A stretch of 64,000 nt of DNA from Clostridia bacterium (GCA_017429165.1 JAFRPL010000037.1:3009-67008); one strand, 5' to 3'. Positions 5,190-60,061 are shown, counted from the stretch's first letter. Notes: generated by a model from the sequence alone, not told the origin. Translations and numbers: made by a program.

Positions 5190-5192
5190 TTT

Positions 5193-8129: not shown

Positions 8130-8170
8130 ACTGCAATTCAGACTTGGGCGGGTATTCGGTTGTTTGTCGA

Positions 8171-8422: not shown

Positions 8423-8749
8423 ATAGACGTCATCCTTTCTGTAAAGAGTATTGCCCTTGTCTGAATTCGCGGGTATTATACTCGCTATTTGTGAATATTG
8501 TGTTAACATATGTTAGATGATTTGTAATATTGCATAAAATATATACCAATGATTTGTGCACATAGTTCGTTTTTGGCGTCAAATTGCATAAGAAACGAAA
8601 AAGCGCGGCGAAGTAAGAGCCAACATAAAGCAAAAACAGACCCACTGTGGCGTCTTTCGATTTTGAAAGTGTCATAGTGGGTCGTTTTCTTTCGGTTTGT
8701 CTTATCAGCTAAATTGAAAACCTGCGGTTTTCAGCGCTTTTAGTATTTT

Positions 8750-9256
8750 TCAGTTCGTTTTCCAGTAATACCAGCTTCCGCCGGCCCGGACCGCGTACGC
8801 CGTGATCTCGAACGCTTTTGCGTTTTCGGAAAATACAGTCATTTTCACTTGCGCAAAGCGATCCGGCTTTTCTGCTTCCGGCATGCGCGCCGTATATTCG
8901 GCAAAAAGCGTTTCGTATTCCGCGTCTCCGGCAGAATACTCCCCTGTAATTTCTGCGTTATAAGTGAGCTTTTTGCCGGCGTAGCGCGAAGTGACGGAAG
9001 AATACTGCTTTTTTAAATAATCCTTGAGGTCGGTATTGCGCGGCGCGTGGTCGGTTAGAACGGCCGTGTTATATTCCGAAGAATATTTAAGCATACCGTC
9101 GGCGTCGTACAGCATAGCCGCTTTCTGATACCGCCATACCGCCCGGACCGGATCGTCGGCGCCCGTCCGCGTAAGCGCCCTCACTACGAGGAAAACGCCC
9201 AAAGCGACCGCCGCGACGCATACTGCAAGCAGTATTACAAAAAGCTTTTTGCTCAT
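8750..9256 (-). CDS. Hypothetical membrane-anchored protein
   Basis: 168 aa with an N-terminal TM/signal anchor (LFVILLAVCVAAVALGVFLVV). ATGA overlap with the upstream lipoprotein gene. No recognised motif. Confidence 0.6.
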   Translation of the reverse strand: MSKKLFVILLAVCVAAVALGVFLVVRALTRTGADDPVRAVWRYQKAAMLYDADGMLKYSSEYNTAVLTDHAPRNTDLKDYLKKQYSSVTSRYAGKKLTYNAEITGEYSAGDAEYETLFAEYTARMPEAEKPDRFAQVKMTVFSENAKAFEITAYAVRAGGSWYYWKTN

Positions 9257-10260
9257 TTTTCGGTAATGACGTCTTTAGCCACCTTGACCTCGCCGTCGCA
9301 GTTGATGACGTTGCTGCGTGCGCTGACAGTGATGTTTCCGCCTTCGACCGTCACTTTTCGAGTCGCCTGGATGCCGTCGTCGGAAGCGGTGATGCTTATG
9401 TCGCCGCCGCGGATATATACGAAACCTTTGAGGACTTCTTCAGTGTTGTCAGTCTTTATGCCGTCCTTGCATTTGGTGATATTGATGACGACTCCGCTGT
9501 TGATCGCCACGGAATCGTTGCCCTTGAGCGCGTTCTTGGATGCGCTGACGGTAATATTGCCGGAAAAGATGCGGAGATCGTTCTTGGTGCCTATGCCGTT
9601 ATTATTGTTCGCCTTGATCTCGAGCGACCCGCCGCCGTTTACGGTGAGGTCGTCCTTGGAAAACAGACAGGCGTTAGGTTCGTTATCAGCGTTATCGTAC
9701 ACGTAAGTCTTGCCGTCGGTCAGAAAGTTCTTGGTTCCGTCGGCGAGGGTAACGGCCACCTTGTCGGCGGATTTGACCCATACGGGAGCAGATTTGGAGC
9801 AAATGAGGTCTAGCCCATTGAAGACGAGGCGGACTTTATCGGTCTTGGGGACTTCGACGATTATCTGGCCGTTTGTCGATCTGCCCGAAACGACGTAAGT
9901 ACCGGCGGCGGTGATGGTGACGAATGAACCGTTTGCGGTCGCGCCGACGCCGGAAACAGTCACGGAAGATCCGTCGAACACGATAGTCGTATCGTCGCTG
10001 TCATAGGAAGTCGTCTGGTCGAATTTGGTGAAATACTCGTCTTCTACTATCTGCGAAACATCTTCGCTTTCCTGAGGTTCAACGCCGCTTTCATCAGGTT
10101 GAGGCGCGGAAACATCTGCGCCGGAAGTATCGGAAGAAGTATCAGCAGAAGAAGAGCTCTCTTTTCCGGAAGTTTCGGAGGTCTCGGTGGAGTTTCCGCC
10201 GCACGCCGCCAAAGCGAGGAGCAGGCAAAGCGAAAGCAAAACAGCAATCAAACGTTTCAT
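9253..10260 (-). CDS. Lipoprotein, Cthe_2159-like carbohydrate-binding beta-helix family
   Basis: Start moved to ATG 10260 (MKRLIAVLLSLCLLLALAACGG, lipobox LAAC). Ser/Thr/Glu-rich linker. Repetitive beta-helix sequence TITAAGTYVVSG...GQIIVEV...DKVRLVFNGLDL..SKSAPVWVKSADKV..TLADGT.N.LTDG...FSKDDLTVNG.GSL is typical of that family. Confidence 0.7.
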   Translation of the reverse strand: MKRLIAVLLSLCLLLALAACGGNSTETSETSGKESSSSADTSSDTSGADVSAPQPDESGVEPQESEDVSQIVEDEYFTKFDQTTSYDSDDTTIVFDGSSVTVSGVGATANGSFVTITAAGTYVVSGRSTNGQIIVEVPKTDKVRLVFNGLDLICSKSAPVWVKSADKVAVTLADGTKNFLTDGKTYVYDNADNEPNACLFSKDDLTVNGGGSLEIKANNNNGIGTKNDLRIFSGNITVSASKNALKGNDSVAINSGVVINITKCKDGIKTDNTEEVLKGFVYIRGGDISITASDDGIQATRKVTVEGGNITVSARSNVINCDGEVKVAKDVITEK

Positions 10261-10376
10261 ATGTTCATGCCCTTTCAAAAAAGTCATATTTTTCAGTATT
10301 TGAATTTTGTCATATTAAATAAAAATAGTCAAGAGATAAAGTGTTACTAATTATTGACTAATGCTTATAATAATTG

Positions 10377-13825: not shown

Positions 13826-15046
13826 TCAAAGAATGGGCTCCATAGGTTTGCCGTCGGCGATCATACCGAGAAGCTTATCCATAAGCATGAGCATACGCGG
13901 ATAATGGAAAGGACCTTTCCACATAGAACCCTTCTGAGTGTGGCTCACGGTGTTGTCGCGGTGCAGATAGCCGTACCATTCGCCGTATTCGTGATCGGTG
14001 AAATGTCCGAACGCAAAATCGTGGACTTTCTTGAACCAGTCGAAATACTTCTGCTCGCCGGTTATCCCGTAAGCGTACAGGGTGGCGATAAGCGCTTCGT
14101 CGTGGACCCACCAGAGCTTCATATCGTGTTCGAGCTGCTCGGGAGGTCTGCCGTCGCAATCGGTGAAATAGATAAAACCGCCGTACTGTTTGTCCCAGCC
14201 CCATTCGAGCGACCAGTTGAGTATATTGAGCGCTTTCTCAAGCAGATCTTTGTCGTTGGAATAAACCGCTTCGCTCATAAGGAACCAGCTGTTTTCCATT
14301 GAATGGCCGGGGTTGATGCACCTGCCGGCGGGGTTATCGATGAATTCCCCGTTGGCGCCCACGGTCTCGAGCACGCAATGACGGTCGGGCTTGTAATGGT
14401 ATTTTATTATGGAATCCACCATCTCGCGCGTTACGGCAGTATAGTATTCGGCTTTTTCGGGGTCGCACCTGCGAAGAAGCTGCGCTGAAGAGACGAGCAC
14501 CATAGGCACGGCGGAAGCTCTTTCTGCGCGGGTGGAAGCATAGGTTTTGGGTGTGATCTAATAAGGATCGCTCGAAGGATCGCGATATAATCTGAGCATC
14601 ATTTCAAAGCAGTCTTCGGCTTTTTTGAGCGCCTCTTTGTCGCCGGTCATAAGGCCGTATTCAGCCATGGAAAGCACGTAAAAGCTTTCGGAAAACATAT
14701 AGCGGCGTTTTCTGAGCGGTCTGCCGTCGCGCGTGAGGGTGAAAAACATCCTGCCGTCGGTATCGATGCATTTTTCGTTGAGGAATTTTACGCCGAGCTC
14801 GGCCGCGTCGACCCATTCGGGACGCTTGCCGTAGTTATTGCAGAGCGCCGAAAAAGTCCAGAGGCACCTACCCTGGAACCAGCCGGATTTGTCTTCGTTA
14901 TAAACTTTTCCTTCGCGGTCCACGTTAGTCATATACCCGCCGTATTTCCTGTCGAGCAGATCGCTCTTCATCCAGAACGGGATACAGTCGTCGAGCAGGC
15001 GGTTCCTGTAGTAGTTTTGATACGATTTGATCAGTTGTTTATCCAT
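13826..15046 (-). pseudogene. N-acylglucosamine 2-epimerase (AGE/cellobiose 2-epimerase family) interrupted by one in-frame TAG
   Basis: ORFs 14558..15097 (true start ATG 15046, MDKQLIKSYQNYYRNRLLDDCIPFW) and 13826..14509 are in the same frame. The join reads ...RDPSSDPY-TAG(14560-14558)-ITPKTYASTRAERASAVPMVLVSSAQ. Both halves together give a full-length (alpha/alpha)6 AGE-like protein with no other lesion. Confidence 0.8.
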
Positions 15047-15168
15047 TATTTTGCACACTCCTTTTCTGAAAAAATATTTTATCACAACGCTCGTCAAAAG
15101 TCAAGCGAAAGCGGCGGCGGCAAAGAGAAAATAAATGGACGGCAAAGGCGTTTAATCTGCAAAATCAG

Positions 15169-18268: not shown

Positions 18269-20311
18269 GTGCTGTTGTTTTCCGGCACCGCCTTTATAAC
18301 GGTATCGACGGGCAGCGTAGTTTTCCCGCTTTGTTTTGCCGCGCTTGCCGTATCGTGCTGCTTTTTGAGCGCGATACGGCTTATTCGTATACGTACCGCG
18401 GTCATACTTGCGATAATTCCGTTTATCGCGATCGCATATACGAAGATCTACGCGGCTGTCAGGCTGCCGGATTCGCAGACGGAAGGCACAGTCTACGCCG
18501 AAGTCACGAACGTCAGCACATATTTCAACGGCAGCAGCGCGACCGTCACGGCGCTTGAAGGAGACGCAGCGGTAAAGCGCGGTGACGGCATAAAGGTATA
18601 TATTTCCGGCACATCAGGTTACCGCTGCGGCGATATCATCCGGTGCCGCGGCAGGTTCGTACCGACAGATGACGCGAAGGCGACAGCGCGCGGCGAGTTT
18701 TACGAATTCGCCGGAGCGACGGCTTACGCCGGGGAAAGCGGCTCGCCGTTCACTCGGATTCGCCGCGGTATCGCCGATATGTGCGACAAATATCTTGACG
18801 CCGATGCGGCGTGGTTCGTAAAAGCCGTGACGATAGCCGACAGGTCGGATATAAGTCCGGAAAACAGCGCCGTCTTTGCAAAGGCGGGGGCGTCGCACGT
18901 GCTGGCGGTTTCGGGGATGCATCTTTCGGTAGTCGTTATGCTCCTTTATTCGCTGCTCGCAAGATTTGTAAGCAACAGATTCGTCCGCTGTTTTGCCGGA
19001 TGCTTTCTGGTTTTCTGTTTCTGCGCCGTTGCCGATTTCCCGTATTCTGCGGTGCGTGCCGGGCTTATGCTTTGCATCACGTTCATTGCGTCGGCGGTAT
19101 CGGCGCGAAGCGATTCTCTGACGTCTCTTTTCGCAGCGCTCGGGATCATCACGGTGATCGATCCGTACTCCACCGCTTCGCTTTCGCTGCAGCTTTCGTT
19201 CCTGTGCACGCTCGGCATGATCTGCGTGGGAAACTCTTACGAATACAAGGCCGATACAAAGCTCGGGAAGATCTTTTTCAAGCTCATCGTGACGCCGTTC
19301 GTCACATCGCTCGCGGTCGTGATCTTTACGCTGCCGGTGATACTGTATAACTTCGGAAAGTTTTCACTCTACGCGCCGCTTTCCACGCTGTTATGCATAT
19401 TGCTCTTCCCGCTTCTGCTTGGGGTTTCGTATCTGTTCTGCATCATTGCGTTTGCCGTGCCGTTCGCCGCAAGCGCCGTTGGGAGCGTCGTTTCGTTTAT
19501 TTCACACGTTTTTACCGGAGCGATCGACATTGTGTCCGGACTTCCCTTCGCATCCGCGCCTTTCTACCCGGCGCTTGTTCCCGCTATATGCGCGTTATGC
19601 GGTATCGCCGCGGCGGCATATCTTATCCTCGGCAAAAAAATCCGCAAAAAAGCATTTATCGCAACGTGCGCGGTCATACCGGCGCTGCTCTTTTCCGCAG
19701 TTCTTATCCCTTATATAATCCGTAACGATACAGTATACTATTCCGACGTTTTCGGCGGATACGGCGCAGCGGTGGCGAGCGACGGAGAATGCGTCTTTAT
19801 AGACAGCGGCAGCGCATATAACGCCACCGATGTGATAAGCGCCGCCGGTTTCGCCGGATGCGATACCCTGGTCATAGCCAATCTCGGCAGGAACTCGCAC
19901 CGGATGATAACTCTTTTTTCTAAAGTCTACGGGACAAAACGGGTCGCCGTTCCCGAACCTCGGACGCCCGACGAACAGGAATTCTTTGATTTGTCTTACG
20001 AAGCCGCGCGCGGGGAAAGCTGCGTATTTGAGCCGTATACCGAGCTCGTGCTCATGGTTGGTGACATAAGACTGTATATAAGCGAAGGCGACGCCGTGAT
20101 AGCGACGCCCGCGGAGAAAGTCTGCATTGCCAAAAAATACATGTATGACGGAAATCACATATATGACAAGATAGTTCTTCCTTCCGCCTATTACCCGCAG
20201 CCGAAAGGCGATATAGATCTGCATTCGCATTACTATTGCGTTTACGAAGATTTCCCTGCGGGTCACGCCACGTTCATCAAAAGGAACGAGTGCGTCGCCA
20301 TAATACCTTGA
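18269..20311 (+). CDS. comEC: ComEC/Rec2-family DNA internalisation channel protein, with a degenerate C-terminal metallo-beta-lactamase-like domain
   Basis: Competence-domain motif FAKAGASHVLAVSGMHLSVV and many TM segments. comEC-holA synteny. Only non-ATG starts are available (GTG 18269) and there is no clear RBS, so the start is uncertain. The C-terminal region reads VIANLGRNSHRM where HxHxDH is expected. Confidence 0.8.
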   Translation: MLLFSGTAFITVSTGSVVFPLCFAALAVSCCFLSAIRLIRIRTAVILAIIPFIAIAYTKIYAAVRLPDSQTEGTVYAEVTNVSTYFNGSSATVTALEGDAAVKRGDGIKVYISGTSGYRCGDIIRCRGRFVPTDDAKATARGEFYEFAGATAYAGESGSPFTRIRRGIADMCDKYLDADAAWFVKAVTIADRSDISPENSAVFAKAGASHVLAVSGMHLSVVVMLLYSLLARFVSNRFVRCFAGCFLVFCFCAVADFPYSAVRAGLMLCITFIASAVSARSDSLTSLFAALGIITVIDPYSTASLSLQLSFLCTLGMICVGNSYEYKADTKLGKIFFKLIVTPFVTSLAVVIFTLPVILYNFGKFSLYAPLSTLLCILLFPLLLGVSYLFCIIAFAVPFAASAVGSVVSFISHVFTGAIDIVSGLPFASAPFYPALVPAICALCGIAAAAYLILGKKIRKKAFIATCAVIPALLFSAVLIPYIIRNDTVYYSDVFGGYGAAVASDGECVFIDSGSAYNATDVISAAGFAGCDTLVIANLGRNSHRMITLFSKVYGTKRVAVPEPRTPDEQEFFDLSYEAARGESCVFEPYTELVLMVGDIRLYISEGDAVIATPAEKVCIAKKYMYDGNHIYDKIVLPSAYYPQPKGDIDLHSHYYCVYEDFPAGHATFIKRNECVAIIP

Positions 20312-46860: not shown

Positions 46861-46891
46861 AAAACATGCCCAAACGCGGGCATGTTTTTTT
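46861..46891 (+). terminator. Rho-independent terminator of trkAH (left boundary of the phage-derived cassette)
   Basis: Perfect 11-bp stem AAAACATGCCC / GGGCATGTTTT, 6-nt loop, followed by a T-run. Confidence 0.85.
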
Positions 46892-46902
46892 GTGTAAGTA
46901 TA

Positions 46903-46916
46903 CGAACATATGTTCG
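46903..46916. promoter_or_regulatory. LexA (Cheo/SOS) box, perfect palindrome
   Basis: CGAACATATGTTCG equals the idealised Firmicutes LexA/DinR operator (CGAAC-N4-GTTCG). It is extended to the 16-bp palindrome ACGAACATATGTTCGT and lies 5 nt upstream of the -35 of the cassette promoter. Confidence 0.75.
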
Positions 46917-46921
46917 TTGCG

Positions 46922-46950
46922 TTGAAACGGCGCAAAACCGGGTTTAGAAT
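46922..46950 (+). promoter_or_regulatory. Sigma-A promoter of the phage-derived cassette
   Basis: TTGAAA (46922-46927), 17 nt, TAGAAT (46945-46950). The leader to the terS ATG is about 85 nt and GC-rich. Confidence 0.55.
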
Positions 46951-47040
46951 GAAAGTGTGACGGGCGGGACCGGATCGCAGCCGGCGCGGCCGAAGTCTTT
47001 TGCCCGCACAAAAACGGTAAGGCACAGAGAGGAGAAAGAA

Positions 47041-47397
47041 ATGAAAAAATACCCGTTTAAGATATCCTCGCTCGAAAACCTCATTGCGGATTATTTCGAC
47101 AAATATCTTTTGCAGAACCCCGCGACGGTACCCGATACCGAATCGCTCGCGGCTTACCTCGGCATCACGCGCGAAGAGCTCAATGAGCTTGAAAGCGGCA
47201 AGAACACTTCACGCGCGGTAAAAAACGCCAAGACGCGTATCGCCGCCGCTAAAAAGCAGTTGGCTTACCGCGGCAAGATACCCGCGGCAGTGCTTGCGTT
47301 CGATCTCAGGAACGACCACGGATACCGTGACAAGCCCGAGGATATGAACTGTTCCACGCTGATATTGCGCGGCCTGGCTGAAGAATGGAGCGAATAG
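47041..47397 (+). CDS. terS: Phage terminase small subunit (HTH type)
   Basis: Start moved to ATG 47041 behind AGAGGAGAAAGAA. PDTESLAAYLGITREELNELE is an HTH followed by AAVLAFDLRNDHGYRDK, matching the pattern of small terminases (xxEGLAxYLGIxxxTL ... IFxLKNxxGxxDK). Confidence 0.7.
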   Translation: MKKYPFKISSLENLIADYFDKYLLQNPATVPDTESLAAYLGITREELNELESGKNTSRAVKNAKTRIAAAKKQLAYRGKIPAAVLAFDLRNDHGYRDKPEDMNCSTLILRGLAEEWSE

Positions 47398-47403
47398 CAC
47401 GCT

Positions 47404-48753
47404 ATGCTGAAACAATTTGACATCCTTCCCAACCCCAAACAGCTGGAATTCTTTAAATCCAAAGCCAAATACACCGCTTACGGCGGCGCGCGAGGAGGCG
47501 GGAAATCGTGGGCGATGCGGATAAAGCTCGTACTTCTCGCCGCAAGGTACGCGGGTATAAACATACTGCTGCTTAGGCGCACTCTGGGGGAGCTGCGGGA
47601 AAACCACATCATTCCCCTGCGCGCGCTGCTGAACGGAGTCGCCGTTTACAAGGATTCGGCAAAAGAATTCGACTTTCCCAACGGCAGCCGCATCAAGCTC
47701 GGCTATCTCGATTCCGAATCGGACGTACTGCAGTATCAGGGCCAGGCGTACGAGGTCATAGGGATGGAGGAAGCCACGCAGTTCACTTATTTTCAGTTCC
47801 TGTGCCTTACCGAATGCAACCGCGTTTCCGGCTCGATGACCAAGCCGTTCACGCCGCGAATGTATTTCACCTGCAATCCCGGAGGAGTCGGCAACAACTG
47901 GGTAAAGCGGCTGTTCATAGACCGTGAATACCGCCTTAACGAAAACCCCGCCGATTACGTGTTCATAAAGAGTCTGGTGTACGACAACACGTTTCTTATG
48001 GAACACGACCCCGGATATCTGCGCACGCTCGAAGCCCTGCCCGAAACGCGAAAGCGCGCCATGCTTTACGGCGACTGGAATTCGTTCGAAGGTATGTTTT
48101 TCCCCGAATTCGACGAGGCGAAACACGTTATCCCCGACCTTCGTCCGTCTTCCGAATGGGTAAAGTTCCGCGCGCTCGATTACGGGCTGGATATGACCGC
48201 CTGCCTGTGGATCGCCGTCACGCCCGAACGACGACTGGTAGTTTACCGCGAGCTTTGCAAGCCGAATCTTATACTTTCGGAAGCAGCGGCGGCGATAATC
48301 AGAGCGACGCCCGAAAACGAGAATATCCGTTACACGGTGGCGTCGCCCGACCTTTGGAACAGGCGGCAGGACAGCGGCAAAAGCGGCGTGCAGATAATGA
48401 CCGAAGCGGGTCTGAAAGGACTGCGGCGCGCCGACAGCGCGCGTATACCGGGCTGGCGCGTGATGCGCGAATACCTGCGCCCGGGCGCCGAAGACGGAAT
48501 TCCTAAGCTGCATATCACGAGGTCGTGCAAAGAACTCATAAGGTGTCTCCCCTCTTTGGCTTTCGACCCGGATACGAGCGAGGACGCTTCGGACGCTCCG
48601 CACGACATAACGCACGCGCCTGAAGCGCTTCGCTACGCGGTGATGTCACGCGAACCGCGCTGCGAACCGAGGACACCGCCCGACACGGGCGGTACGTACA
48701 GTTTCGGCAGCCGCAGGATAAATGCCGGAAACGACGATTATTTTGAATGTTAG
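47404..48753 (+). CDS. terL: Phage terminase large subunit
   Basis: 449 aa. Walker A YGGARGGGKSWAM, Walker B-like ILLLRRT, coupling motif MEEAT, and a C-terminal nuclease-like region (ALDYGLD...DAPHDITHAPEALRY). Confidence 0.88.
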   Translation: MLKQFDILPNPKQLEFFKSKAKYTAYGGARGGGKSWAMRIKLVLLAARYAGINILLLRRTLGELRENHIIPLRALLNGVAVYKDSAKEFDFPNGSRIKLGYLDSESDVLQYQGQAYEVIGMEEATQFTYFQFLCLTECNRVSGSMTKPFTPRMYFTCNPGGVGNNWVKRLFIDREYRLNENPADYVFIKSLVYDNTFLMEHDPGYLRTLEALPETRKRAMLYGDWNSFEGMFFPEFDEAKHVIPDLRPSSEWVKFRALDYGLDMTACLWIAVTPERRLVVYRELCKPNLILSEAAAAIIRATPENENIRYTVASPDLWNRRQDSGKSGVQIMTEAGLKGLRRADSARIPGWRVMREYLRPGAEDGIPKLHITRSCKELIRCLPSLAFDPDTSEDASDAPHDITHAPEALRYAVMSREPRCEPRTPPDTGGTYSFGSRRINAGNDDYFEC

Positions 48754-48768
48754 GAGAAAACGACACGT

Positions 48769-50337
48769 ATGAAAAACAAAACTCCGACCACCGACGAATG
48801 GAAGCTTTACGAAAGCGGGAAAGAGTACAACACTTCGCTTGATCTGTACAACAAGGTCGCTTCCAACGAGCGGTTCTACCGCGGCGACCAGTGGGAAAGC
48901 GTGAGATCGGGCAATCTTCCTCGCCCGGTGTTCAACATCTTCAAGCGCATAATCAACTACTATTCCTCTTCCATACTTTCCACGTCCGTGGCAATGAAAT
49001 TCTCTTTCGCCGAACCTTTCGGCGAAGGACTTCCCGTCGGCAGAGAAACTGCCGCCGGCTACGAGAAGATGCTCAACGGCATCGCACAGCGGAGCTGGGA
49101 GGATATGCGCATGGAAGAGCTTATGGACGACGCGCTCCACGATGCGGCGCTGAGCGGCGACGCGGTGGCGTACACCTACTGGGACGCCGGCGTAAAAACC
49201 GGCCAGGAGCTCAAAGGCGATTTCCGCACCGTGCTGGTGGATAACACCGACGTGTTTTTCGGGAACCCCAACAGCCGCTGCGTGCAGAAGCAGCCGTGGA
49301 TACTCATATCCGCGCGCGAACACGTAGACGACCTGAAAACCCAGGCGAGGCGCAACGGAAGACCGGAAGAAGAGATCGCAAAGATAAAGCCCGACACCGC
49401 GAACGACTGCGGCAGCGGCGATCTTTCGAAGATCGAGCTCGAAAACACCCGGTGCATTTCGCTCATAAAGCTGTGGCGGGGCGGGGACGGCAGGATCCGC
49501 TACCGCAAATCCACGCGCGACGCGGTGATATGCGGCGAGACCGAGACAGGGCTTCGCGATTACCCGATCGCCGTGATGAACTGGACGAAATCCAAGAATT
49601 CATGGCACGGCGAGGCTGTCGCGACCGGGCTGACCGAAAACCAGATATTCATCAACAAGGGCTACGCGATGGTGATGAAGCATATGATGGACACCGCTTT
49701 TTCCAAGGTGGTGTACGACGGTACCGTGCTCGAAGACTGGTCCAACCGCGTAGGCGAAGCGATCAAGGTCGACGGCCCGGTCAACGACGTCGCCAAAGTG
49801 ATACTCCCCGGGCAGATGCAGTCCGGTATGCTGGAAGTCATAAATATGGCCATGTCGGCGACCAAGGAATGCTTAGGCGCGACCGACACGGCTCTCGGCG
49901 ACGTGGAGCCCAACAACACTTCCGCCATCCTCGCGCTGCAAAAGGCGTCCACGCTTCCGCTTGAAAGCGTAAAGCGTCAGTTTTACCGCTTTATAGAAGA
50001 TATTGGGCTTGTGTGGCTCGATTTCATAACCGCCTATTACGGCGAGGGGCGCCTTATAGAAACGGAAGGCGGATACGCGCGTTTCAGTCTGGGTGAAAAA
50101 CGCGACGCGCTGTTCAAGTGCAGGATAGACGTCGGGCCTTCGGCGTACTGGTCCGAGATCGCCTGCCTGAACACGCTGGACAATCTGCTTCAGGGCGGAC
50201 ACATAAACATAATACAGTATCTTGAACGGCTGCCCGAAAACCTGCTGGCTTCCAAGGATCAGCTGATAAACGAGATACGGGAAAACTATGAGAAAGGTTT
50301 GACAGATGACAAAGAAACGATTGATGGAAATACTTGA
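48769..50337 (+). CDS. Phage portal protein (putative)
   Basis: 522 aa. The position directly after terL, the size, and the N-terminal NERFYRGDQW...LPRPVFNIFKRII block are typical of portal N-termini. RBS AGGAGA. Confidence 0.65.
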   Translation: MKNKTPTTDEWKLYESGKEYNTSLDLYNKVASNERFYRGDQWESVRSGNLPRPVFNIFKRIINYYSSSILSTSVAMKFSFAEPFGEGLPVGRETAAGYEKMLNGIAQRSWEDMRMEELMDDALHDAALSGDAVAYTYWDAGVKTGQELKGDFRTVLVDNTDVFFGNPNSRCVQKQPWILISAREHVDDLKTQARRNGRPEEEIAKIKPDTANDCGSGDLSKIELENTRCISLIKLWRGGDGRIRYRKSTRDAVICGETETGLRDYPIAVMNWTKSKNSWHGEAVATGLTENQIFINKGYAMVMKHMMDTAFSKVVYDGTVLEDWSNRVGEAIKVDGPVNDVAKVILPGQMQSGMLEVINMAMSATKECLGATDTALGDVEPNNTSAILALQKASTLPLESVKRQFYRFIEDIGLVWLDFITAYYGEGRLIETEGGYARFSLGEKRDALFKCRIDVGPSAYWSEIACLNTLDNLLQGGHINIIQYLERLPENLLASKDQLINEIRENYEKGLTDDKETIDGNT

Positions 50338-50833
50338 AGATCTCGCCGAAAGCGAAGGCAGATCCGCCGAGGCGTTTCTGCTCGACATTGCGGAAAAAGC
50401 CGAAAACGCGCGCAGCGAAAGGTTCAGATCGTACCCGCCCGAGCTTCAGACCGAAGCGGCGGAAGCCGAAAAGATAAAGCGCAGCTACCGTGAGGAAAAA
50501 CGCAGGATGCGCGAAAGAGAGCAGTTCGACAAAGAGCTCGAAACGTTCATCAAAGCTTTCCCCGGCGTTACGCCGGAAACGGTACCGCAGCGCGTCTGGG
50601 AAGACGTTGCGGACGGTATACCGCTCGCGTACGCTTACGCCTTTTCGGTCGCCGCCGGCGGCAAGACGAGCGACGAGATCAATGCACGGAACGAAGCGAG
50701 ATCAGTCCCCGTCGCGCCCGGCAGAGCCGAAGAGCCTGCTTTCACCGAAAGCGAAGTGGAAAAAATGCCTCCCGCAGCGGTGAAGAACAACTTTGCAAAG
50801 ATCATAAGTTCCATGAAAAAATGGAAATCATAA
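50306..50833 (+). CDS. Putative scaffolding protein
   Basis: 175 aa, highly charged and predicted helical (EAEKIKRSYREEKRRMREREQFDKELE). It lies between the portal and capsid genes and overlaps the portal end. Confidence 0.5.
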   Translation: MTKKRLMEILEDLAESEGRSAEAFLLDIAEKAENARSERFRSYPPELQTEAAEAEKIKRSYREEKRRMREREQFDKELETFIKAFPGVTPETVPQRVWEDVADGIPLAYAYAFSVAAGGKTSDEINARNEARSVPVAPGRAEEPAFTESEVEKMPPAAVKNNFAKIISSMKKWKS

Positions 50834-50848
50834 GAAAGGAACGGTAAA

Positions 50849-51673
50849 ATGTCCAATTACAATTCTATAGAAAAGATCATCTCCGCGGAAATACTCCGCA
50901 CCAACGAAGACAATCTCATTGCCAACAAAATATGCAACACCTCGTTCGCGGGCGATATAAAGAACTCCGGCGATTCGGTGACTTTCATCGGGCTCAACGA
51001 TCCCGCGGTGGGCAGCTACAACGGCACTGTCAGCTATGAAGAGATCGACGACAACGCCATAAAGCTCAACATCGACCAGGATAAGTACTTCGCTTTCAAG
51101 GTCAGCGATCTTGAGGCGCTGCGCAGCTCGATAGGGCTCAAGGATTCGCAGACCAAGCGCGCGAGCTACAACCTTAAAAAGAGCGTGGATTCATATGTGC
51201 TGGGCCTTTACGGACAGGCCGGGACCACGCTCGCTTCCGCGACGGTCACTCCCGCCAACGCGCTTCAGGTAGTCGCCGAAATGAAAGAGGCGCTCGAAAA
51301 AGCCAACGTCCCCGACGGCCAGTCGTGGATCGTCATCCCGCCTTTCCTCAAGACAAAGCTCATACTCGCCGGGATCAAGTTTTCGGTAAACGAAGGCGTA
51401 AACGGCACCGGCGCTATCGGCTACACCGACGAGCTGGGCTGCGATCTTTACGTTTCGAACCAGCTTTCCAACTACGGCACCACCTACTACGCGCTCGCCG
51501 GTTCGTATTCCGCCATCGGCTACGCCGAGCAGATACTCGACACCCAGGTCATCGACCGCATGGAAGATTCGTTCGACACCGCCGTGCGCGGCAGGATCGT
51601 CTTCGGGGCAAAAGTCATAAAGCCGGGCGAACTTGTCTGCGCTCCCGTCATCGACGGCGGAAACAGCATATAA
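50849..51673 (+). CDS. Putative major capsid protein
   Basis: 274 aa. Position after the scaffold gene, strong RBS, and a following stabilising hairpin region. No protease gene is present. The call rests on synteny and composition only. Confidence 0.55.
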   Translation: MSNYNSIEKIISAEILRTNEDNLIANKICNTSFAGDIKNSGDSVTFIGLNDPAVGSYNGTVSYEEIDDNAIKLNIDQDKYFAFKVSDLEALRSSIGLKDSQTKRASYNLKKSVDSYVLGLYGQAGTTLASATVTPANALQVVAEMKEALEKANVPDGQSWIVIPPFLKTKLILAGIKFSVNEGVNGTGAIGYTDELGCDLYVSNQLSNYGTTYYALAGSYSAIGYAEQILDTQVIDRMEDSFDTAVRGRIVFGAKVIKPGELVCAPVIDGGNSI

Positions 51674-51697
51674 ACTGACTGAAAGGAGAATAACACA

Positions 51698-52087
51698 ATG
51701 GCTATCACCGTAACCCCCACCTACGTCAACCCTTCCAACACCGCAAAGAATGCTGCTTTTGCGGAAGGCGTTTCCGAAACCGCCGGCACCGCCGAGACCT
51801 TTGAGACCGTCTTCCCCGCGAGCGACGAGACCTGCTACATAATGGTCAAGAACGGCAACGCCGCCACGGTCCAGGTCAAGCTGCTCGCCGCCAAGGAAAA
51901 CAACGGCTTCAGCGAAGTGAACCACACGCTCGCCAAGAACGGCATGTGCGTCTTCTCGGTCGAGTCCGGATTCGTTAAGAACGCTGACGGAAAAGTCTAC
52001 GTAAAAGTGACGCCCAACTCCGCTACGACCGTCAAATCCTGCGCCGTAGGCGTCGCCGCGATATATTCCGGCGTGACGACCGCTTAA
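51698..52087 (+). CDS. Phage-like structural protein, unassigned (decoration/head-fibre candidate)
   Basis: 129 aa. RBS AGGAGA. Beta-rich, Ala/Thr/Val-rich composition. Confidence 0.5.
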   Translation: MAITVTPTYVNPSNTAKNAAFAEGVSETAGTAETFETVFPASDETCYIMVKNGNAATVQVKLLAAKENNGFSEVNHTLAKNGMCVFSVESGFVKNADGKVYVKVTPNSATTVKSCAVGVAAIYSGVTTA

Positions 52088-52123
52088 GGGTCCGGAAATC
52101 CGACCCCTCAAGGGCAAAAAAAT

Positions 52124-52155
52124 GCGCGTTCCGCGGCGAAAAGCCGCGGACGCGC
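52124..52155 (+). other. GC-rich hairpin after the capsid-region genes (mRNA stabiliser/attenuator candidate)
   Basis: GCGCGTTCCGCGG (52124-52136) / CCGCGGACGCGC (52144-52155) with a single bulge. No T-tract follows. Confidence 0.45.
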
Positions 52156-52174
52156 CATAACGAAAGGAGCTATT

Positions 52175-52591
52175 ATGAACGATAACTGGGTGATAAAGAC
52201 CGAGGTGAGCGTAAGCGCGGAAAAGATATTTTCCATAATGACTTCGTTCCTGGGTATCAACGGGAGTCTGGGGGCGCAGGAGCAGATTTCCGAACGTTGC
52301 CGCCCCGGCGCGCTCGACTGCATAAACGCGGCGATCCACGAAGTGAACAAGATAAACCGCGAATTTTCGAATAACGATATCACGCCGTCCGTTGTTACGA
52401 GCTTTGAAGAATCCGTCACAGCGGTATCGGCGGTCGCGTACAACGTTCTTCCGCTAAGAGCGGCGACATTCCTGGCGCTTCGCTACGACGTAAAGACTGC
52501 GCAGATCCTGCAAAAGATATACGATATGACTTTTGAGATCTATCACGGCGCGGCTCCGGCGAAAGCGGGGCCGATAAGCGAGGCGTACTGA
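52175..52591 (+). CDS. Phage-like protein, head-tail connector/adaptor candidate
   Basis: 138 aa. RBS AGGAG. The size, position and helical N-terminal half are as in gp6/gp4-type adaptors. No motif-level support. Confidence 0.45.
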   Translation: MNDNWVIKTEVSVSAEKIFSIMTSFLGINGSLGAQEQISERCRPGALDCINAAIHEVNKINREFSNNDITPSVVTSFEESVTAVSAVAYNVLPLRAATFLALRYDVKTAQILQKIYDMTFEIYHGAAPAKAGPISEAY

Positions 52592-54285
52592 TGGCTAAGA
52601 GAAGCGTTTATTACAGATCGTTCGGCGGACTTGACCGGTACGCCAAGGACGCGATATGCGCCGAAAGCGCCGTCGATTTCGTCGTCGATGCGGGCGGTTC
52701 CCTCTGCAAAAGCAAAGGGTTCGAAAACTTTATCCGTTCGCCGGCGGCAATCAAGGCGTGCTGGGCGGGTACGCTTTGCGGCAGGAACGCGATAGTGTTC
52801 CTTGCAGGCGGAAACATCTACGACTGCGATCCGGACAATATGACGATGACTTCGGAAGACGCATCCGGCGCGTCGAGAGCCGCGTTTTTTAAATACGAAG
52901 ACAAGCTCTACGCGCTTTGCGACACCGGATATTTCCGCTACGACGGCAGCACGTTCGAAAGCGCAACCGGATACATACCGCTTATTTCGGTATCCACGGC
53001 GCCTGACGGCGAAGGGACTGCGTACGAAGCGGTCAATATGCTGAGTTCCGCGAGAAGGCAGCAATTTTCACCCAACGGGACCGACGCATGCTTTCATCTT
53101 GCCGAAAAGGACATAAGCGCCGTGATCAAAGTGACGCTCGGGGGCGAGGAATGCGCCGCGAGCGACTACAGCTGCGACACGGCGAACGGCACGGTCACGA
53201 TGACGAATATCCCGGACGCCGGCGTGAACACGCTCGAGATCACATACGACACGGGCAGTTCGGGCAGGAGCGATTTCTGCAAGTTCAAGAACGCCATGCT
53301 TTTCGGCTCCAACGCCGACGAGCGCGTTTTTCTGTGGAACAATCCCGACCGCCCGTGCATACGGATCCACAGCGAGCTTGCCGACGGCGTGCCGAGCGCC
53401 GAGTATTTCCCCGTAACGAACTACACTTCGGTCGGCAGCGCGCCCATAACCGATATGGTCCAGGAATACGACCGGCAGCTGATATTCACCGCCGATTCTG
53501 CGTATTATTCGTACTGCGAGATGAAGACGATGACTTCGGGAAAAACAGTCGCTTCGTTCCCGGTATATCCGCTTCATCCGCGCAAAGGGAACCTGATATA
53601 CGGCAGTTCGTGCGTTATGAACGGGCTGGCGGCGACTCTGTGCCGAGACGGAGTGAATATCTGGCGGCCTTCCACTGTTGAAAACGAAAAGAACGCGGTA
53701 TGCATTTCGGGCGCGGTGAACGATATGATACTTCCCGAAACGTACGCTTACGCAACGGGCGCAAAGCTATTTGAACTTCCCTCTTTGAGCGAGCTGTATT
53801 TTGTGGGCGCGACGATGACGGCGGTGTTCAATTACGCCACGCAGAAATGGTACAGACTTTCCGCAGGCGGTATGACTAACGTGTTCGAAGCGTTCGGCAG
53901 CGTTTTCGCCGTTAAGGGCGAATACATAAAGCGCATGACTTCATCCGAGCGTTCGGGCAGCGCAAGTTACAAAACGCATTACAGCGAGCTGGGAAGCTGT
54001 GCGCTTAAAGACGTTCATTTCATAAACCTCACTGTAGAAGCCGGTTACGTCACCGCCGGGAGCGTGAAAGTATACTGGCCCGGGGAAAGCGGGGTTTTCA
54101 GTTCGGAACAGTATTTCGAGGTCGATCAGGCGCTTCACGGGAACGCGGTATCTGTCGCGCTGCCGTTCTATATCCCCAACGTGAGCGGTATTTCGGTGGA
54201 GTTTAAATGTCCGCCCGGCAAGGAACTGAAGATACTGGGATACGGCATCACATTTGACGACAAAGGAGTAAACAATGGATTATAA
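52591..54285 (+). CDS. Large phage-like virion protein, unassigned (tail hub/nozzle candidate)
   Basis: 564 aa. Its start overlaps the previous stop (TGATG). Beta-rich sequence with recurring aromatic-Gly motifs. Function inferred only from position. Confidence 0.45.
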   Translation: MAKRSVYYRSFGGLDRYAKDAICAESAVDFVVDAGGSLCKSKGFENFIRSPAAIKACWAGTLCGRNAIVFLAGGNIYDCDPDNMTMTSEDASGASRAAFFKYEDKLYALCDTGYFRYDGSTFESATGYIPLISVSTAPDGEGTAYEAVNMLSSARRQQFSPNGTDACFHLAEKDISAVIKVTLGGEECAASDYSCDTANGTVTMTNIPDAGVNTLEITYDTGSSGRSDFCKFKNAMLFGSNADERVFLWNNPDRPCIRIHSELADGVPSAEYFPVTNYTSVGSAPITDMVQEYDRQLIFTADSAYYSYCEMKTMTSGKTVASFPVYPLHPRKGNLIYGSSCVMNGLAATLCRDGVNIWRPSTVENEKNAVCISGAVNDMILPETYAYATGAKLFELPSLSELYFVGATMTAVFNYATQKWYRLSAGGMTNVFEAFGSVFAVKGEYIKRMTSSERSGSASYKTHYSELGSCALKDVHFINLTVEAGYVTAGSVKVYWPGESGVFSSEQYFEVDQALHGNAVSVALPFYIPNVSGISVEFKCPPGKELKILGYGITFDDKGVNNGL

Positions 54286-55567
54286 GGATTATCTGGACGA
54301 GGCAAAAAAGAAATTGGGCGAAACAGACGCGCTCAAGAATTACCGACAGTTTTACGAAAGCGCCGTAAAGCGCATAAAAGAACGCCGCGACAGTGAACTT
54401 GCGGAGATCGAAAAATCGTACCGCGACGGGCTGAACGAGGCGTCTGCGCAGGACCGCATACTCGCCAAAAATGCCGATCAGTATATGGCGTCGCGCGGGC
54501 TCGCGCGTTCCGGCGAAGCCGAGCAGGAATATATCGACCGTTCGCTGGCGTTTGCAAAAAAGGCGACCTCGCTCGCCGAAGGCAGGCGCAAAAGCGAAGA
54601 TGCCGCAAGGGCCGGCGCCGAAAACGCTATTTCCGTGCTGGACAAAGACTACGCCGAAAAGGCAGACGCCGAAAATCAGCGCGCCTACGCCGAAGCCGCG
54701 GAAGAGGCGAAGACGAGGTACGAAGCCGACCGCGATAACGAGCGTTACAGGCGCGAGACCGAAAGCGAGCGTGCCGAGCGCGAATACAATATCACGCTGG
54801 CGCGCATAAAGGCCGAGCTCGCCGAAGCCGCGGCTCAAAAGGAAAGAGAGTTCAACGCTTCCGAAGCAGCCAAAAAGCGCGAATACGAAGCGGCAGAGGC
54901 TGAAAAGAAACGCGCGTACGAAGCGAGTGAAGCCGAAAAGAAGCGCCGGTACGAGCTGGAGAAGGCGAAAGCTTCGAGCTCTTCGCAAAGTTCCGCAAGC
55001 GGAAACAAAAGCGGCGGATACGTTCCCAAACAGACCGCATCTCAGCTTGCAAAGCAGATAGTATCAAGCCGCACCGCGTCGGGGACCGTGAGCACCGTGA
55101 GCGAAGCCGCGGCCGTTAACGATTACCTCAAAGAGCTCGAAAGCGAAAACGGCATAGACGAAAGCTATATGCGCGACCTTAAGCTGGCGCTCGGAAGCTA
55201 CGGTTTCTTCGTCCCCACGCAGTCTGACTATAAGGCGAGCGAGATCGCCGCGCAATCGGAAAAAACGTATAAAACCGTCTATGACCGAGCGCGCGCCGAC
55301 TACAGGCGCGCAGGCGACCCGGACGCGGACAAAAAGGCGAAAACCGCCGCGCAAAACGCGCAGATGCAGTTCTGCCGTGAAAAATGCGAAACATACGAGC
55401 AGTTCGTGAGATGCTGCCGCGAATGCGGTATAAGCGACGCCGTCATAGCGCGCTTTACGGCAAGCAATCCGCCGGAAAAGAGCGCCAAAGCGACTGAAAG
55501 CGCGGTATCCGGCGCCGTGAGCGCGGCGAAAACCGCGGCGGGCGGCAAGGAAAACACGTTGAAATAG
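54275..55567 (+). CDS. Coiled-coil phage-like protein (needle/plug or internal ejection protein candidate)
   Basis: 430 aa. The N-terminal roughly 230 aa are E/A/K/R-rich heptad-like sequence that includes 3 x 11-aa repeats. Then a Ser-rich linker and a Cys-containing C-terminal domain (FCREKCETYEQFVRCCRECG). Confidence 0.45.
   Translation: MDYKDYLDEAKKKLGETDALKNYRQFYESAVKRIKERRDSELAEIEKSYRDGLNEASAQDRILAKNADQYMASRGLARSGEAEQEYIDRSLAFAKKATSLAEGRRKSEDAARAGAENAISVLDKDYAEKADAENQRAYAEAAEEAKTRYEADRDNERYRRETESERAEREYNITLARIKAELAEAAAQKEREFNASEAAKKREYEAAEAEKKRAYEASEAEKKRRYELEKAKASSSSQSSASGNKSGGYVPKQTASQLAKQIVSSRTASGTVSTVSEAAAVNDYLKELESENGIDESYMRDLKLALGSYGFFVPTQSDYKASEIAAQSEKTYKTVYDRARADYRRAGDPDADKKAKTAAQNAQMQFCREKCETYEQFVRCCRECGISDAVIARFTASNPPEKSAKATESAVSGAVSAAKTAAGGKENTLK
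54857..54955 (+). repeat. 3 x 33-bp in-frame tandem repeat inside the coiled-coil gene
   Basis: Units 54857-54889, 54890-54922 and 54923-54955 encode ASEAAKKREYE / AAEAEKKRAYE / ASEAEKKRRYE. Confidence 0.85.
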
Positions 55568-55580
55568 CGGGAGGCCGAAT

Positions 55581-55883
55581 ATGGATCTGTACGAATACAT
55601 AAAACCGGAACTCATCTCGCTGCTGCCGCTGTTGTATATCATAGGCGAAACGCTCAAAAGATCGTCGGTAGCGGATTGGAAGATCCCTTTCATACTCGGC
55701 ATAGCGGGCATTGCGCTTGCGCTCGTATGGCTCGTCGCGTGCGGCGTTCCCGAAAGCGCGGACGGGCTCGTAAAGCTAGTCGCCTGCGGAGCCGCACAAG
55801 GGCTTTTGTGTGCGGGAGCAACTGTCTACGCGCACAACCTTGTCAAACAATACGGCAAAAGGAACGGTGACGAAGATACATGA
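55581..55883 (+). CDS. Phage holin (clostridial Hol44 / phage_holin_5-like family)
   Basis: 100 aa. KPELISLLPLLYIIGETLKRS..DWKIPFILGIAGIALALVWL......AQGLLCAGATVYAHNLVKQYGK matches the conserved layout of that holin family as I recall it. Charged C-terminal tail. Confidence 0.7.
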   Translation: MDLYEYIKPELISLLPLLYIIGETLKRSSVADWKIPFILGIAGIALALVWLVACGVPESADGLVKLVACGAAQGLLCAGATVYAHNLVKQYGKRNGDEDT

Positions 55884-55950
55884 AGACGTTTATAAGCTGT
55901 ATAAAGAGGGCGTTTGAGCTTATAGCGGCTCTTATTTACGAGATAGGGGC

Positions 55951-56268
55951 ATGAGCTATATCACAGAGGCGCTTGCGATAATATTCTCTTCCTCGGGCGT
56001 TATAGGCGCGGTGATCGCAGCGCTGATGCGCAGGGCGATGAGAAACGCCGCCGAAGACGCCGAACGCAGACGGCGCGAATACGTGGAAGAGCAGCTTTCG
56101 CGCTTTGAGCTCGATCACGCGGCGAACGAGCTGCTGATAGCGCTCGCCCGCTACGCCCGCAAGCTTTGCACCGAAACCGAGCTTGAGATCGCCGAAGCCA
56201 ACTATACCGCCGCAGTCAACAAAGCCGATATGACGCTCAAGAAGAACTACGTTTCGCACAAAAAATGA
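55951..56268 (+). CDS. Small N-terminally membrane-anchored coiled-coil protein (lysis-accessory candidate)
   Basis: 105 aa with a TM segment (ALAIIFSSSGVIGAVIAALM) followed by a charged helix. Weak RBS. Last gene before the terminator. Confidence 0.45.
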   Translation: MSYITEALAIIFSSSGVIGAVIAALMRRAMRNAAEDAERRRREYVEEQLSRFELDHAANELLIALARYARKLCTETELEIAEANYTAAVNKADMTLKKNYVSHKK

Positions 56269-56269
56269 G

Positions 56270-56307
56270 AAAAAGCACGCAAGGTATACGCTTTGCGTGC
56301 TTTTTTT
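56270..56307. terminator. Bidirectional rho-independent terminator (right boundary of the cassette)
   Basis: GCACGCAA (56275-56282) / TTGCGTGC (56293-56300), flanked by an A-run upstream and T7 downstream. Confidence 0.8.
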
Positions 56308-58977: not shown

Positions 58978-59014
58978 TATTTATTTCTCCTTTCTGATAA
59001 ATGTTATCGGAAAA

Positions 59015-59043
59015 CACGGGCGCCTTTTTTGCAAAGGCGCCCG
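59015..59043 (-). terminator. Terminator of fba
   Basis: ACGGGCGCCTTT / AAAGGCGCCCGT 12-bp stem. On the minus strand it is followed by GTTTTCC. Confidence 0.65.
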
Positions 59044-59057
59044 TTTTTTGTTTTGAT

Positions 59058-60026
59058 TTACGCTTTTCCGCTGCAGCCGAGCACGTCGACGAGCTTATGG
59101 CGAACAAGTTCCTTGATATTGGCGCGCGCGGGTTTGAGATATTCGCGCGGGTCGAATTTATCGGGATGTTCGGCAAAGAACTTGCGGATCGAGCCGGTCA
59201 TGGCGAGACGGAGGTCGGAATCGATGTTGATCTTGCAGACGGAGCTGCGCGCAGCTTCGCGGAGCTGGCTTTCGGGTATGCCGACCGCGTCGGGCATTGC
59301 GCCGCCGTTTTCGTTGATCATCTTGACGTATTCCTGAGGAACGGAAGACGAACCGTGGAGCACTATGGGGAACCCGGGCAGGCGTTTTTCGACCTCTTTG
59401 AGCACGTCGAAACGGAGAGGAGGCGGGACGAGTATGCCTTCCTCGTTGCGTGTGCACTGAGCGGCGGTGAATTTGTAAGCGCCGTGCGAGGTGCCGATGG
59501 CTATTGCGAGCGAGTCGCAGCCGGTCCTGGAAACGAATTCTTCGACCTCTTCGGGATGCGTATAGGATTCAGCACCGTGTTCGACTTTTACTTCGTCTTC
59601 GATACCGGCGAGAGTGCCGAGCTCGGCTTCGACGACCACGCCGTGGGCGTGAGCGTATTCGACGACCTTTTTGGTGATCTCGATATTTTCGGCAAAAGGT
59701 TTAGAAGAAGCGTCGATCATGACGGAGGTGAAACCGCCGTCGATGCACGCTTTGCAGGTCTCGAAATCGGGGCCGTGGTCAAGATGCAGCACGATGGGGA
59801 TCTCGGGGCATTCGATGACGGCGGCTTCGACGAGTTTGACGAGGTAAGTATGGTTGGCGTATGCGCGGGCGCCTTTGGATACCTGCAGGATAACGGGAGC
59901 GTGTTCTTCTTTGCACGCTTCGGTTATGGCCTGTACGATCTCCATATTGTTGACGTTGAACGCGCCGATGGCGTAACCGCCGTTGTACGCCTTTTTGAAC
60001 ATTTCGGTACTAGTTACGAGTGGCAT
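59058..60026 (-). CDS. fba: Fructose-1,6-bisphosphate aldolase, class II
   Basis: 322 aa. GAFNVNNME, VILQVS, LHLDHG, SVMIDAS, EAELG and HGSS. Confidence 0.95.
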   Translation of the reverse strand: MPLVTSTEMFKKAYNGGYAIGAFNVNNMEIVQAITEACKEEHAPVILQVSKGARAYANHTYLVKLVEAAVIECPEIPIVLHLDHGPDFETCKACIDGGFTSVMIDASSKPFAENIEITKKVVEYAHAHGVVVEAELGTLAGIEDEVKVEHGAESYTHPEEVEEFVSRTGCDSLAIAIGTSHGAYKFTAAQCTRNEEGILVPPPLRFDVLKEVEKRLPGFPIVLHGSSSVPQEYVKMINENGGAMPDAVGIPESQLREAARSSVCKINIDSDLRLAMTGSIRKFFAEHPDKFDPREYLKPARANIKELVRHKLVDVLGCSGKA

Positions 60027-60061
60027 TTTTGTTCTCCTTGTTCTATGTAAAATAAGTTATA

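Follow-up and report, generated by a model that had tools for sequence, protein, structure and literature searches.

An integrase-less operon for a candidate gene-transfer-agent-like, short-tailed particle inherited across Clostridia

The 64,000-nucleotide stretch of Clostridia bacterium DNA analysed here (GCA_017429165.1, JAFRPL010000037.1:3009-67008; hereafter the window) carries a cassette of phage-type packaging and virion genes of ~9.4 kb (46861-56307), flanked by trkH upstream and by the glxK side downstream. A first-pass annotation had described this block as eleven co-directional open reading frames (ORFs) with short gaps or overlaps, and had proposed a host-retained particle producer such as a gene-transfer-agent (GTA)-like element; it overlooked the published FpGTA of Faecalibacterium prausnitzii, an integrase-less operon of 10.5 kb (Nat Commun 2026;17:2046, PMC12946183). 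The eleven plus-strand ORFs, here named o1 to o11, are present as described at 47041-56268 and all are intact. Their lengths (with o4 at 169/175 aa and the remainder as listed below) were called independently in public assemblies that encode an identical 564-aa nozzle protein (o8), one of which is the 'Clostridia bacterium' metagenome-assembled genome (MAG) GCA_017439145.1, contig JAFRTP010000029.1.

Gene content and layout of the cassette

The features of the cassette are given below with window coordinates and strand; L-numbers here and throughout denote related loci.

46861-46888, + strand: rho-independent terminator of trkH, the upstream fence; 11-bp stem then T run, conserved in L004 and L005
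46903-46916, no strand: predicted LexA (Cheo/SOS) box CGAACATATGTTCG, identical to the B. subtilis/Firmicutes consensus
46922-46950, + strand: sigma-70-type promoter TTGAAA-17 nt-TAGAAT, found by scan with 10/12 matches
47041-47397, + strand: o1, small terminase (TerS) of the P22 gp3 family, 118 aa; PF16677 E=4.5e-10, phrog_606
47404-48753, + strand: o2, large terminase (TerL), 449 aa; PF04466, PF03237, phrog_979 E=1.4e-45
48769-50337, + strand: o3, portal of P22/podovirus type, 522 aa; PF16510 E=1.6e-14, phrog_156
50306-50833, + strand: o4, scaffolding protein, 175 aa; 96% hhalign probability to Page_5
50849-51673, + strand: o5, major capsid protein of the HK97 fold family, 274 aa; PF25209, phrog_267 E=8.7e-40
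51698-52087, + strand: o6, small protein in the slot after the capsid gene, 129 aa; hhalign 86-92% to the same-slot proteins of L001 and Acidaminobacterium chupaoyuni
52175-52591, + strand: o7, helical protein directly before the nozzle, 138 aa; present in 42 loci
52591-54285, + strand: o8, tail nozzle, 564 aa; AlphaFold2 and Foldseek
54275-55567, + strand: o9, 430 aa; family alignment, in which conserved N- and C-terminal domains enclose a variable Ala/Glu/Lys coiled coil
55581-55883, + strand: o10, holin of the Hol44 family, 100 aa; PF16079 E=1.2e-20, phrog_1129
55951-56268, + strand: o11, N-terminal transmembrane segment and coiled coil, 105 aa; after the holin in 26 loci
56268-56307, + strand: closing terminator of the operon, strong; 18-bp stem then T7

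Consecutive ORFs from o1 to o11 are spaced by 6, 15, -32, 15, 24, 87, -1, -11, 13 and 67 nt, and the scan recovered both of the terminators and the single promoter that had been claimed for the block. The closing terminator is probably bidirectional and shared with a converging 273-aa gene. The block had also been called integrase-less and devoid of replication genes, and indeed no integrase, repressor or replication gene is found in the cassette or in the rest of the 64 kb. Scans for flanking att-like direct repeats around the cassette and for an adjoining tRNA were negative (the only tRNAs of the window lie at 10.4-10.9 kb, 36 kb away) and GC content displays no break at the cassette, in agreement with what had been seen by eye. 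The remaining window is occupied by housekeeping genes, including mtnA, lepA, hemW, rpsB, alaS, comEC, asnS, trkAH, glxK, fba, pfk and genes of sugar utilisation, and the housekeeping character of the flanks extends to ~60 other loci. A 349-aa ORF at 59001-60050 (+ strand), considered as a flanking gene, was rejected as a shadow ORF with dN >> dS against orthologous loci; the true gene there is a class II fructose-bisphosphate aldolase at 59058-60026 on the minus strand.

The ATG of o1 at 47041 is preceded by the ribosome-binding site AGAGGAG, and the translation of o2 contains the Walker A motif GGARGGGKS. The o3 portal shares 33% identity with the portal of the Bacillus podophage Page. Scaffolding protein o4 has no Pfam match and was assigned at the profile level, where hhalign also gives 96% to the scaffold-position proteins of L001 and A. 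chupaoyuni. For o6, a decoration or head-completion role is a guess. Across species the o6 slot is occupied by three families that BLAST leaves unlinked and that are still joined at the profile level; this slot is the fastest-changing of the cassette and its protein may be surface-exposed. The adjacent o7 is the probable head-to-tail adaptor, an assignment made by position only because its single-sequence AlphaFold2 model failed, with a predicted local distance difference test score (pLDDT) of 42; a weak hhalign match (40%) connects it to an A. chupaoyuni protein that itself bears a weak SU10_adaptor match. Sequence and profile searches of Pfam, PHROGs, NCBIfam and the PDB returned nothing usable on the function of o6, o7, o9 and o11.

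The identity of o8 alters the picture of a head-and-packaging half with no tail gene that the first-pass annotation had drawn. The structural model of o8, built on 72 homologues, has a mean pLDDT of 92.3, and in a Foldseek comparison with the PDB each of its 29 best matches belongs to a podovirus tail or virion complex. Matches include Pseudomonas phage Pa223 (9nwi_Y, 1.5e-18), T7 gp12, SU10 and Sf6, while the comparison with P22 gp10 (8eap_D) yields E=1.6e-14 and a TM-score of 0.60-0.70. At the sequence level o8 displays 26% identity to the virion structural protein of the Bacillus megaterium podophages Page and Pony, reinforced by an hhalign probability of 100% to the Page_15 virion protein. 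The modelled fold of this 564-aa protein is thus well supported as that of a podovirus tail nozzle (P22 gp10, T7 gp12 fold). Because a nozzle is encoded, the cassette combines packaging, head and short-tail genes with a holin gene and is a complete or nearly complete short-tailed virion module, and the tail-stealing capsid-forming satellite that had also been suggested is therefore removed from consideration.

Downstream of the nozzle, o9 is a probable virion protein, for which neither the PDB nor Pfam offers a match and hhalign provides a weak link (78% probability) to Page_18. The holin o10 is followed by o11, which has no family match and is a possible lysis accessory.

Inheritance, selection and relocation

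A scan with the portal protein, covering one genome per bacterial species, identified relatives in 119 species-representative genomes, all of them Clostridia, Oscillospiraceae or 'Ruminococcus' MAGs originating from gut, rumen and digesters. Loci were fetched for 80 of these genomes, and they display the same genes in the same order within a block of ~8.5-9.5 kb. Between species the block is found in several flanking contexts; in 33 loci it comes straight after lepA-hemW, and its recurring neighbours are the host genes secDF, dagK, lepA, hemW and gtrA. No recombinase family recurs beside the block in the fetched loci, and no integrase, AlpA, primase/replication gene or att repeat was found in any of ~60 loci. 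Intactness was judged by ORF length, BLAST coverage being too strict for the divergent C-terminus of the nozzle. Stop-free, full-length ORFs were observed for TerL in 69/69 loci, for the portal in 76/76, for the capsid protein in 73/73 and for the nozzle in 62/64, and the core ORFs are intact in 57/59 complete loci. The sole disrupted core genes seen are the shortened nozzle ORFs at L010:10151-11167 and L076:14825-15856, where the truncation may represent decay or an assembly error.

Synonymous divergence (dS) and the ratio of non-synonymous to synonymous divergence (dN/dS) were computed against L004 and L005, the two closest relatives with the same trkH/glxK context. All 11 genes fall at dN/dS of 0.01-0.27, with values of 0.05-0.11 for o1, 0.01-0.03 for the capsid gene o5 and 0.06-0.08 for o11. 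The dS of the cassette (0.19-0.52 and 0.37-2.7 against L004 and L005, respectively) is within the range of trkA, trkH and glxK. Over a deeper span, the pairwise distances of LepA and of the portal co-vary in 21 lepA-hemW-linked loci with LepA divergence of <=34% (r=0.95, Mantel p=0.0005). Vertical inheritance has carried the cassette through many Clostridia species, in which purifying selection preserves it: intact ORFs, low dN/dS, dS similar to that of the flanks and co-divergence with LepA fit this form of inheritance and not a decaying prophage or a mobile satellite. The first-pass claim that every ORF is intact thus holds in the window and, for the core ORFs, in nearly all complete loci of the relatives. 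Its preference for host retention over random prophage decay is likewise upheld by the recurrence of the block in many species, by purifying selection, by LepA co-divergence and by the lack of a recombinase; where frame-disrupted or neutrally evolving relatives had been named as the contrary outcome, the relatives have intact ORFs and constrained ones.

The same data bear on whether the cassette could be no more than what is left of a P22-like or Page-like prophage, inert and intact only by chance. Every gene has phage homologues, and L094, a 35.7-kb IMG/VR contig, has homologues of the portal, capsid and nozzle genes that are 30-44% identical and arranged in the same order; this contig is unannotated and was judged phage-like from a run of small upstream ORFs. 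A remnant of this kind is nevertheless extremely unlikely, as the ORFs are intact in 57/59 complete loci from species with saturated synonymous sites, dN/dS lies at 0.01-0.27, and both position and promoter elements are conserved. Neutral decay cannot produce such a pattern, and this explanation is effectively refuted.

The window also retains the ancestral neighbourhood of the block, in the order SGNH hydrolase-gtrA-lepA (5193-7004)-hemW (6988-8085), within 3571-10287. The corresponding site is empty:

8086-8170, no strand: empty ancestral site of 85 bp containing a hairpin, between hemW (6988-8085) and a 112-aa minus-strand gene (8171-8509)

The next closest relatives, L007 and L010, have the cassette precisely between the orthologues of hemW and of the 112-aa gene, and in the window it is found 38.8 kb downstream of the empty hemW site in the same orientation. 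The first-pass annotation had overlooked this empty site. The now unlinked LepA-portal pair of the window lies on the regression of the linked pairs (|z| <= ~2.1), which argues for an intragenomic move or for replacement from a close relative, and against distant import. In this lineage the cassette moved as one unit, without recombinase or repeats, from the lepA-hemW site to the trkH/glxK interval.

A clean unit move within one genome, the several flanking contexts among species and the compact size of ~9 kb, roughly equal to the probable capsid capacity, would also suit a capsid-forming satellite or another mobile element that is moved by a phage or an unlinked recombinase and borrows its fibres and lysin; a recent preprint finds GTA candidates and capsid-forming satellites hard to distinguish. 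Such an element is very improbable here, since integrase, AlpA, primase/replication gene and att repeat occur in 0 of ~60 loci and a tail nozzle of its own is encoded. In addition, the divergence follows LepA over a deep range (r=0.95), dS equals that of the neighbouring host genes, and only 10 short matches were returned from IMG/VR.

Promoter and predicted regulation

The -35, -10 and +1 regions of the promoter are conserved in L004-L006 and recognisable in L007, L009, L010 and L042. Upstream lies the predicted LexA box, the only exact copy in the 64 kb of the CGAACN4GTTCG consensus of B. subtilis/Firmicutes (PMC8270828, PMC2248561). The extended box TACGAACATATGTTCGTT agrees with 17/18 positions of the Firmicutes consensus, and the box is retained at this position in L004-L006 although the sequence around it has diverged. 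It is located 5 nt upstream of the -35 hexamer, in keeping with a Cheo box of the Firmicutes LexA regulon, and the cassette promoter appears to be under an SOS (LexA) operator. The first-pass annotation was right that no repressor gene is present in the window, but it overlooked this consensus operator upstream of the promoter. The leader of ~90 nt (46951-47040) includes a GC-rich segment, CGGATCGCAGCCGGCGCGGCCG, that is conserved in L004 and L005 and not in L006; no riboswitch or RNA family was found in the leader in Rfam.

In most other species (L012-L080) the element aCGGGATGAAA is found instead, at the -35 position upstream of terS. It occurs in 17-19/62 upstream regions vs ~1 expected, often after 2-3 direct repeats such as AAAAGCGGGATTTTCTTCGG (for example L014:8020-8217 and L046:8070-8265), and is absent from the window clade, which carries the LexA box. 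The presence of a different conserved element in other species suggests that aCGGGATGAAA is the binding site of a different, dedicated regulator in the ancestral arrangement.

The predicted SOS-type control resembles that of PBSX of Bacillus subtilis and of bacteriocins, and would equally suit a PBSX-like domesticated particle whose selected role is not gene transfer, namely altruistic lysis under SOS that kills or marks competitors or releases DNA and cell contents, the packaged DNA being incidental and not injected productively. Conservation, selection and the absence of mobility genes would be the same under this explanation as under a GTA-like one; no gene for a receptor-binding protein was found within ~74 kb; and the possibility is kept open by the authors of the FpGTA study in their Discussion (PMC12946183). 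The known killers (tailocins, PBSX), however, use contractile or long tails, whereas the cassette provides only a podovirus nozzle, and the full TerS/TerL/portal packaging machine, which is under strong purifying selection, would be needless for killing alone. A particle selected for such a role is unlikely, yet it is a real alternative.

Proposed function and comparison with known systems

The cassette is probably an operon that has been domesticated and fixed in the chromosome and that encodes a small podovirus-like particle, of the same kind as the GTA-like FpGTA. It combines two properties that define GTAs, a structural and packaging cluster free of replication, integration and lysogeny genes, and vertical inheritance with purifying selection. 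The first-pass interpretation stands, therefore, in its host-retained element without replication genes, and falls in its head-only premise and its satellite option. By this interpretation, DNA damage would lead to LexA cleavage and derepression of the single promoter, giving one 9.3-kb polycistronic mRNA. The portal, the scaffold and the 274-aa capsid protein would assemble a small procapsid, into which TerS and TerL would package cellular DNA by a headful mechanism; by analogy with FpGTA, where 8.4-8.9 kb are packaged vs the 9.4-kb operon here, the pieces would probably be shorter than the operon. The probable adaptor o7 and the nozzle o8 would close the portal vertex, with o9 in or on the particle. 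The holin, together with o11 and an unlinked or host murein hydrolase, would lyse the producer cell, and the released particles may deliver host DNA to related cells.

Several observations weigh against this interpretation. Particle production, DNA content and transfer are attributed to this organism by analogy alone. The cassette, the 64-kb window and ~10 kb past its right end (~74 kb) yielded no endolysin, fibre or receptor-binding gene that would account for particle release and adsorption. An HTH-like (helix-turn-helix-like) motif, seen only by eye, may be retained in o1, unlike the TerS of FpGTA and of RcGTA, the GTA of Alphaproteobacteria, and packaging may therefore be sequence-specific. 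The predicted LexA box is just upstream of the -35 hexamer and does not overlap it, and the clean relocation shows that the cassette is able to move as a unit, as a mobile element would. Finally, the cassette was likened to FpGTA by gene order and nozzle fold, not by sequence homology. The FpGTA capsid takes its name from the N4-gp56 model (TIGR04387), which matches 3/36 members of the wider capsid family but not the capsid protein of the window. Only close relatives emerged when homologues of the window capsid protein were sought, a search with the MT836592 capsid protein reached Acidaminobacterium and not Faecalibacterium, and the cluster names from an exhaustive TerL search are those of unnamed metagenomic proteins only.

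A broader and more tentative proposal is that a large group of Clostridia possesses, in this cassette family, an ancient GTA of podovirus type, the Gram-positive equivalent of RcGTA, which was fixed by lepA-hemW before the species diverged and placed under the control of a dedicated factor acting through CGGGATGAAA and the direct repeats; in the present lineage it would have moved 39 kb and been rewired to LexA. This is conceivable, with the balance tilting somewhat against it. If it were true, DNA damage would directly trigger gene-transfer particles in this lineage, and the family could provide the gene clusters still missing for the GTA-like packaging of Ruminococcaceae, Oscillospiraceae and Christensenellaceae of the gut. 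According to a recent report, bacterial DNA inside capsids in human gut viromes most often consists of short host fragments packaged in a GTA-like manner, but the genes responsible have been identified in Faecalibacterium alone. A podovirus-type cluster that is conserved as a single operon in >=119 Clostridia species, with its wide conservation, host-level selection and readable regulatory switch, therefore offers concrete candidates for unexplained packaging events. The nozzle, capsid and portal provide a marker set for finding such clusters, and the predicted operator a testable link between DNA damage (for example by antibiotics) and the flow of genes through communities of the gut and rumen. 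GenBank MT836592, filed as 'Bacteriophage sp.' and of the same architecture, illustrates how readily a cluster of this kind is mistaken for a phage. The present analysis adds how widely and how deeply the block has been inherited vertically beside lepA-hemW, the relocation with its empty site in the same window, and the predicted direct LexA operator.

Three further observations concern the surrounding DNA. A gene for the ComEC competence channel is found in the same window at 18269-20311 (+ strand); DNA uptake from RcGTA employs competence proteins. At 13826-15097 (- strand) adjacent ORFs of 227 and 179 aa match the C- and N-terminal parts of one N-acetylglucosamine (GlcNAc) 2-epimerase Pfam model and are a split gene, whether by frameshift, pseudogenisation or assembly error. 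Some 6-9 kb past the right end of the window (L099:2443-5749) there are five co-directional ORFs of 250, 184, 244, 303 and 94 aa with no usable Pfam or PHROG match.

Among phages, Page offers homologues of the portal (33%), the nozzle (26%; hhalign 100%), the scaffold and the N-terminal domain of o9 in the same structural order. The Page and L094 genomes, in contrast, span 36-40 kb, and Page has annotated tail spike, fibre and endolysin genes. The contiguous lysogeny, replication, tailspike/fibre and endolysin modules of a temperate podophage are not found in the cassette. Two further relatives share parts of its architecture. L001 (GenBank MT836592.1, 9588 bp), filed as 'Bacteriophage sp.' from human faeces, has the order terS-terL-portal-scaffold-MCP (major capsid protein)-small-small-nozzle and a TerL that is 51% identical; rather than a phage genome, this record probably represents a GTA-like cluster of a chromosome or host DNA that had been packaged. 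L084, from the cultured Oscillospiraceae isolate A. chupaoyuni (CP176394.1, 1929669-1950505), is a rearranged relative in which the TerL-scaffold-MCP block is split from the adaptor-nozzle block by coaX and an ECF (energy-coupling factor) transporter gene. Its portal is shifted ~9 kb downstream, an XkdX-like gene is present, and genes for Xre-type HTH, DUF722 and PAS-GerE regulators lie upstream.

Capsid-forming phage-inducible chromosomal islands (cf-PICIs) resemble the cassette as small units with terminase, portal and capsid genes. They are mobile and carry integrase, AlpA and replication genes with att sites, none of which is found here, and they lack tail genes, whereas the cassette has its own nozzle. 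PBSX is likewise a chromosomal defective phage-like element of a Gram-positive host that is associated with the SOS response, holin lysis and the packaging of host DNA (for the cassette, predicted properties). In contrast, PBSX is a killer particle of ~28 kb with a myovirus contractile tail and an Xre repressor, and the cassette displays none of these. The likeness to RcGTA resides in a phage structural cluster without replication or integration genes, vertical inheritance, purifying selection, co-divergence with the host and, as predicted for the cassette, host regulation. The two differ in construction, RcGTA being siphovirus-like with a long tail, a tape measure and a prohead protease, and the cassette podovirus-like and scaffold-based. 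RcGTA moreover comprises ~15 kb together with several accessory loci, responds to CtrA, GafA and quorum sensing as its regulators, and has no sequence relationship to the cassette.

FpGTA was termed by its authors the first podovirus-like GTA-like element; its cultures lyse spontaneously and release 40-nm capsids containing 8.4-8.9 kb of random host DNA, while delivery of this DNA to recipients is itself unproven (PMC12946183). Its operon I, with proteins RCH50844-RCH50852, encodes TerS, TerL, the portal, a scaffold-slot gene, the MCP, two genes, a 'tail nozzle (PDB 8eap)', one gene and a 'TolA' protein, and a second locus of 5.5 kb carries fibre/receptor-binding protein, holin and endolysin genes (PMC12946183); the gene order was deduced from the accession numbers in the proteomics table together with the text of that paper. 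Its authors did not find the operon outside Faecalibacterium, even though other Ruminococcaceae, Oscillospiraceae and Christensenellaceae likewise displayed GTA-like packaging (PMC12946183). Particles and DNA were seen for FpGTA, whereas the cassette is known here from its genes. The holin is inside the main operon here and at the second locus in FpGTA, no second fibre/receptor-binding protein-endolysin locus was found within ~74 kb, the scaffold-slot protein is without a Prp annotation, this copy carries a LexA box, and the host lineages differ. Against these differences stand extensive likenesses. Both are integrase-less podovirus-type operons of ~10 kb in gut Clostridia and near-ubiquitous within their own host lineage, and the order TerS-TerL-portal-scaffold slot-MCP-two small genes-nozzle-coiled-coil virion protein is the same, almost gene for gene. 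The slot of o9 matches by position that of the 'TolA'-annotated RCH50844.1, the third most abundant particle protein of FpGTA (PMC12946183), and the P22 gp10 nozzle fold (PDB 8eap) is common to both. The cassette family is a broadly distributed lineage for which no description was found in the literature searched, and by this analogy the cassette is best filed with the recently described podovirus-type GTA-like elements of gut Clostridia.

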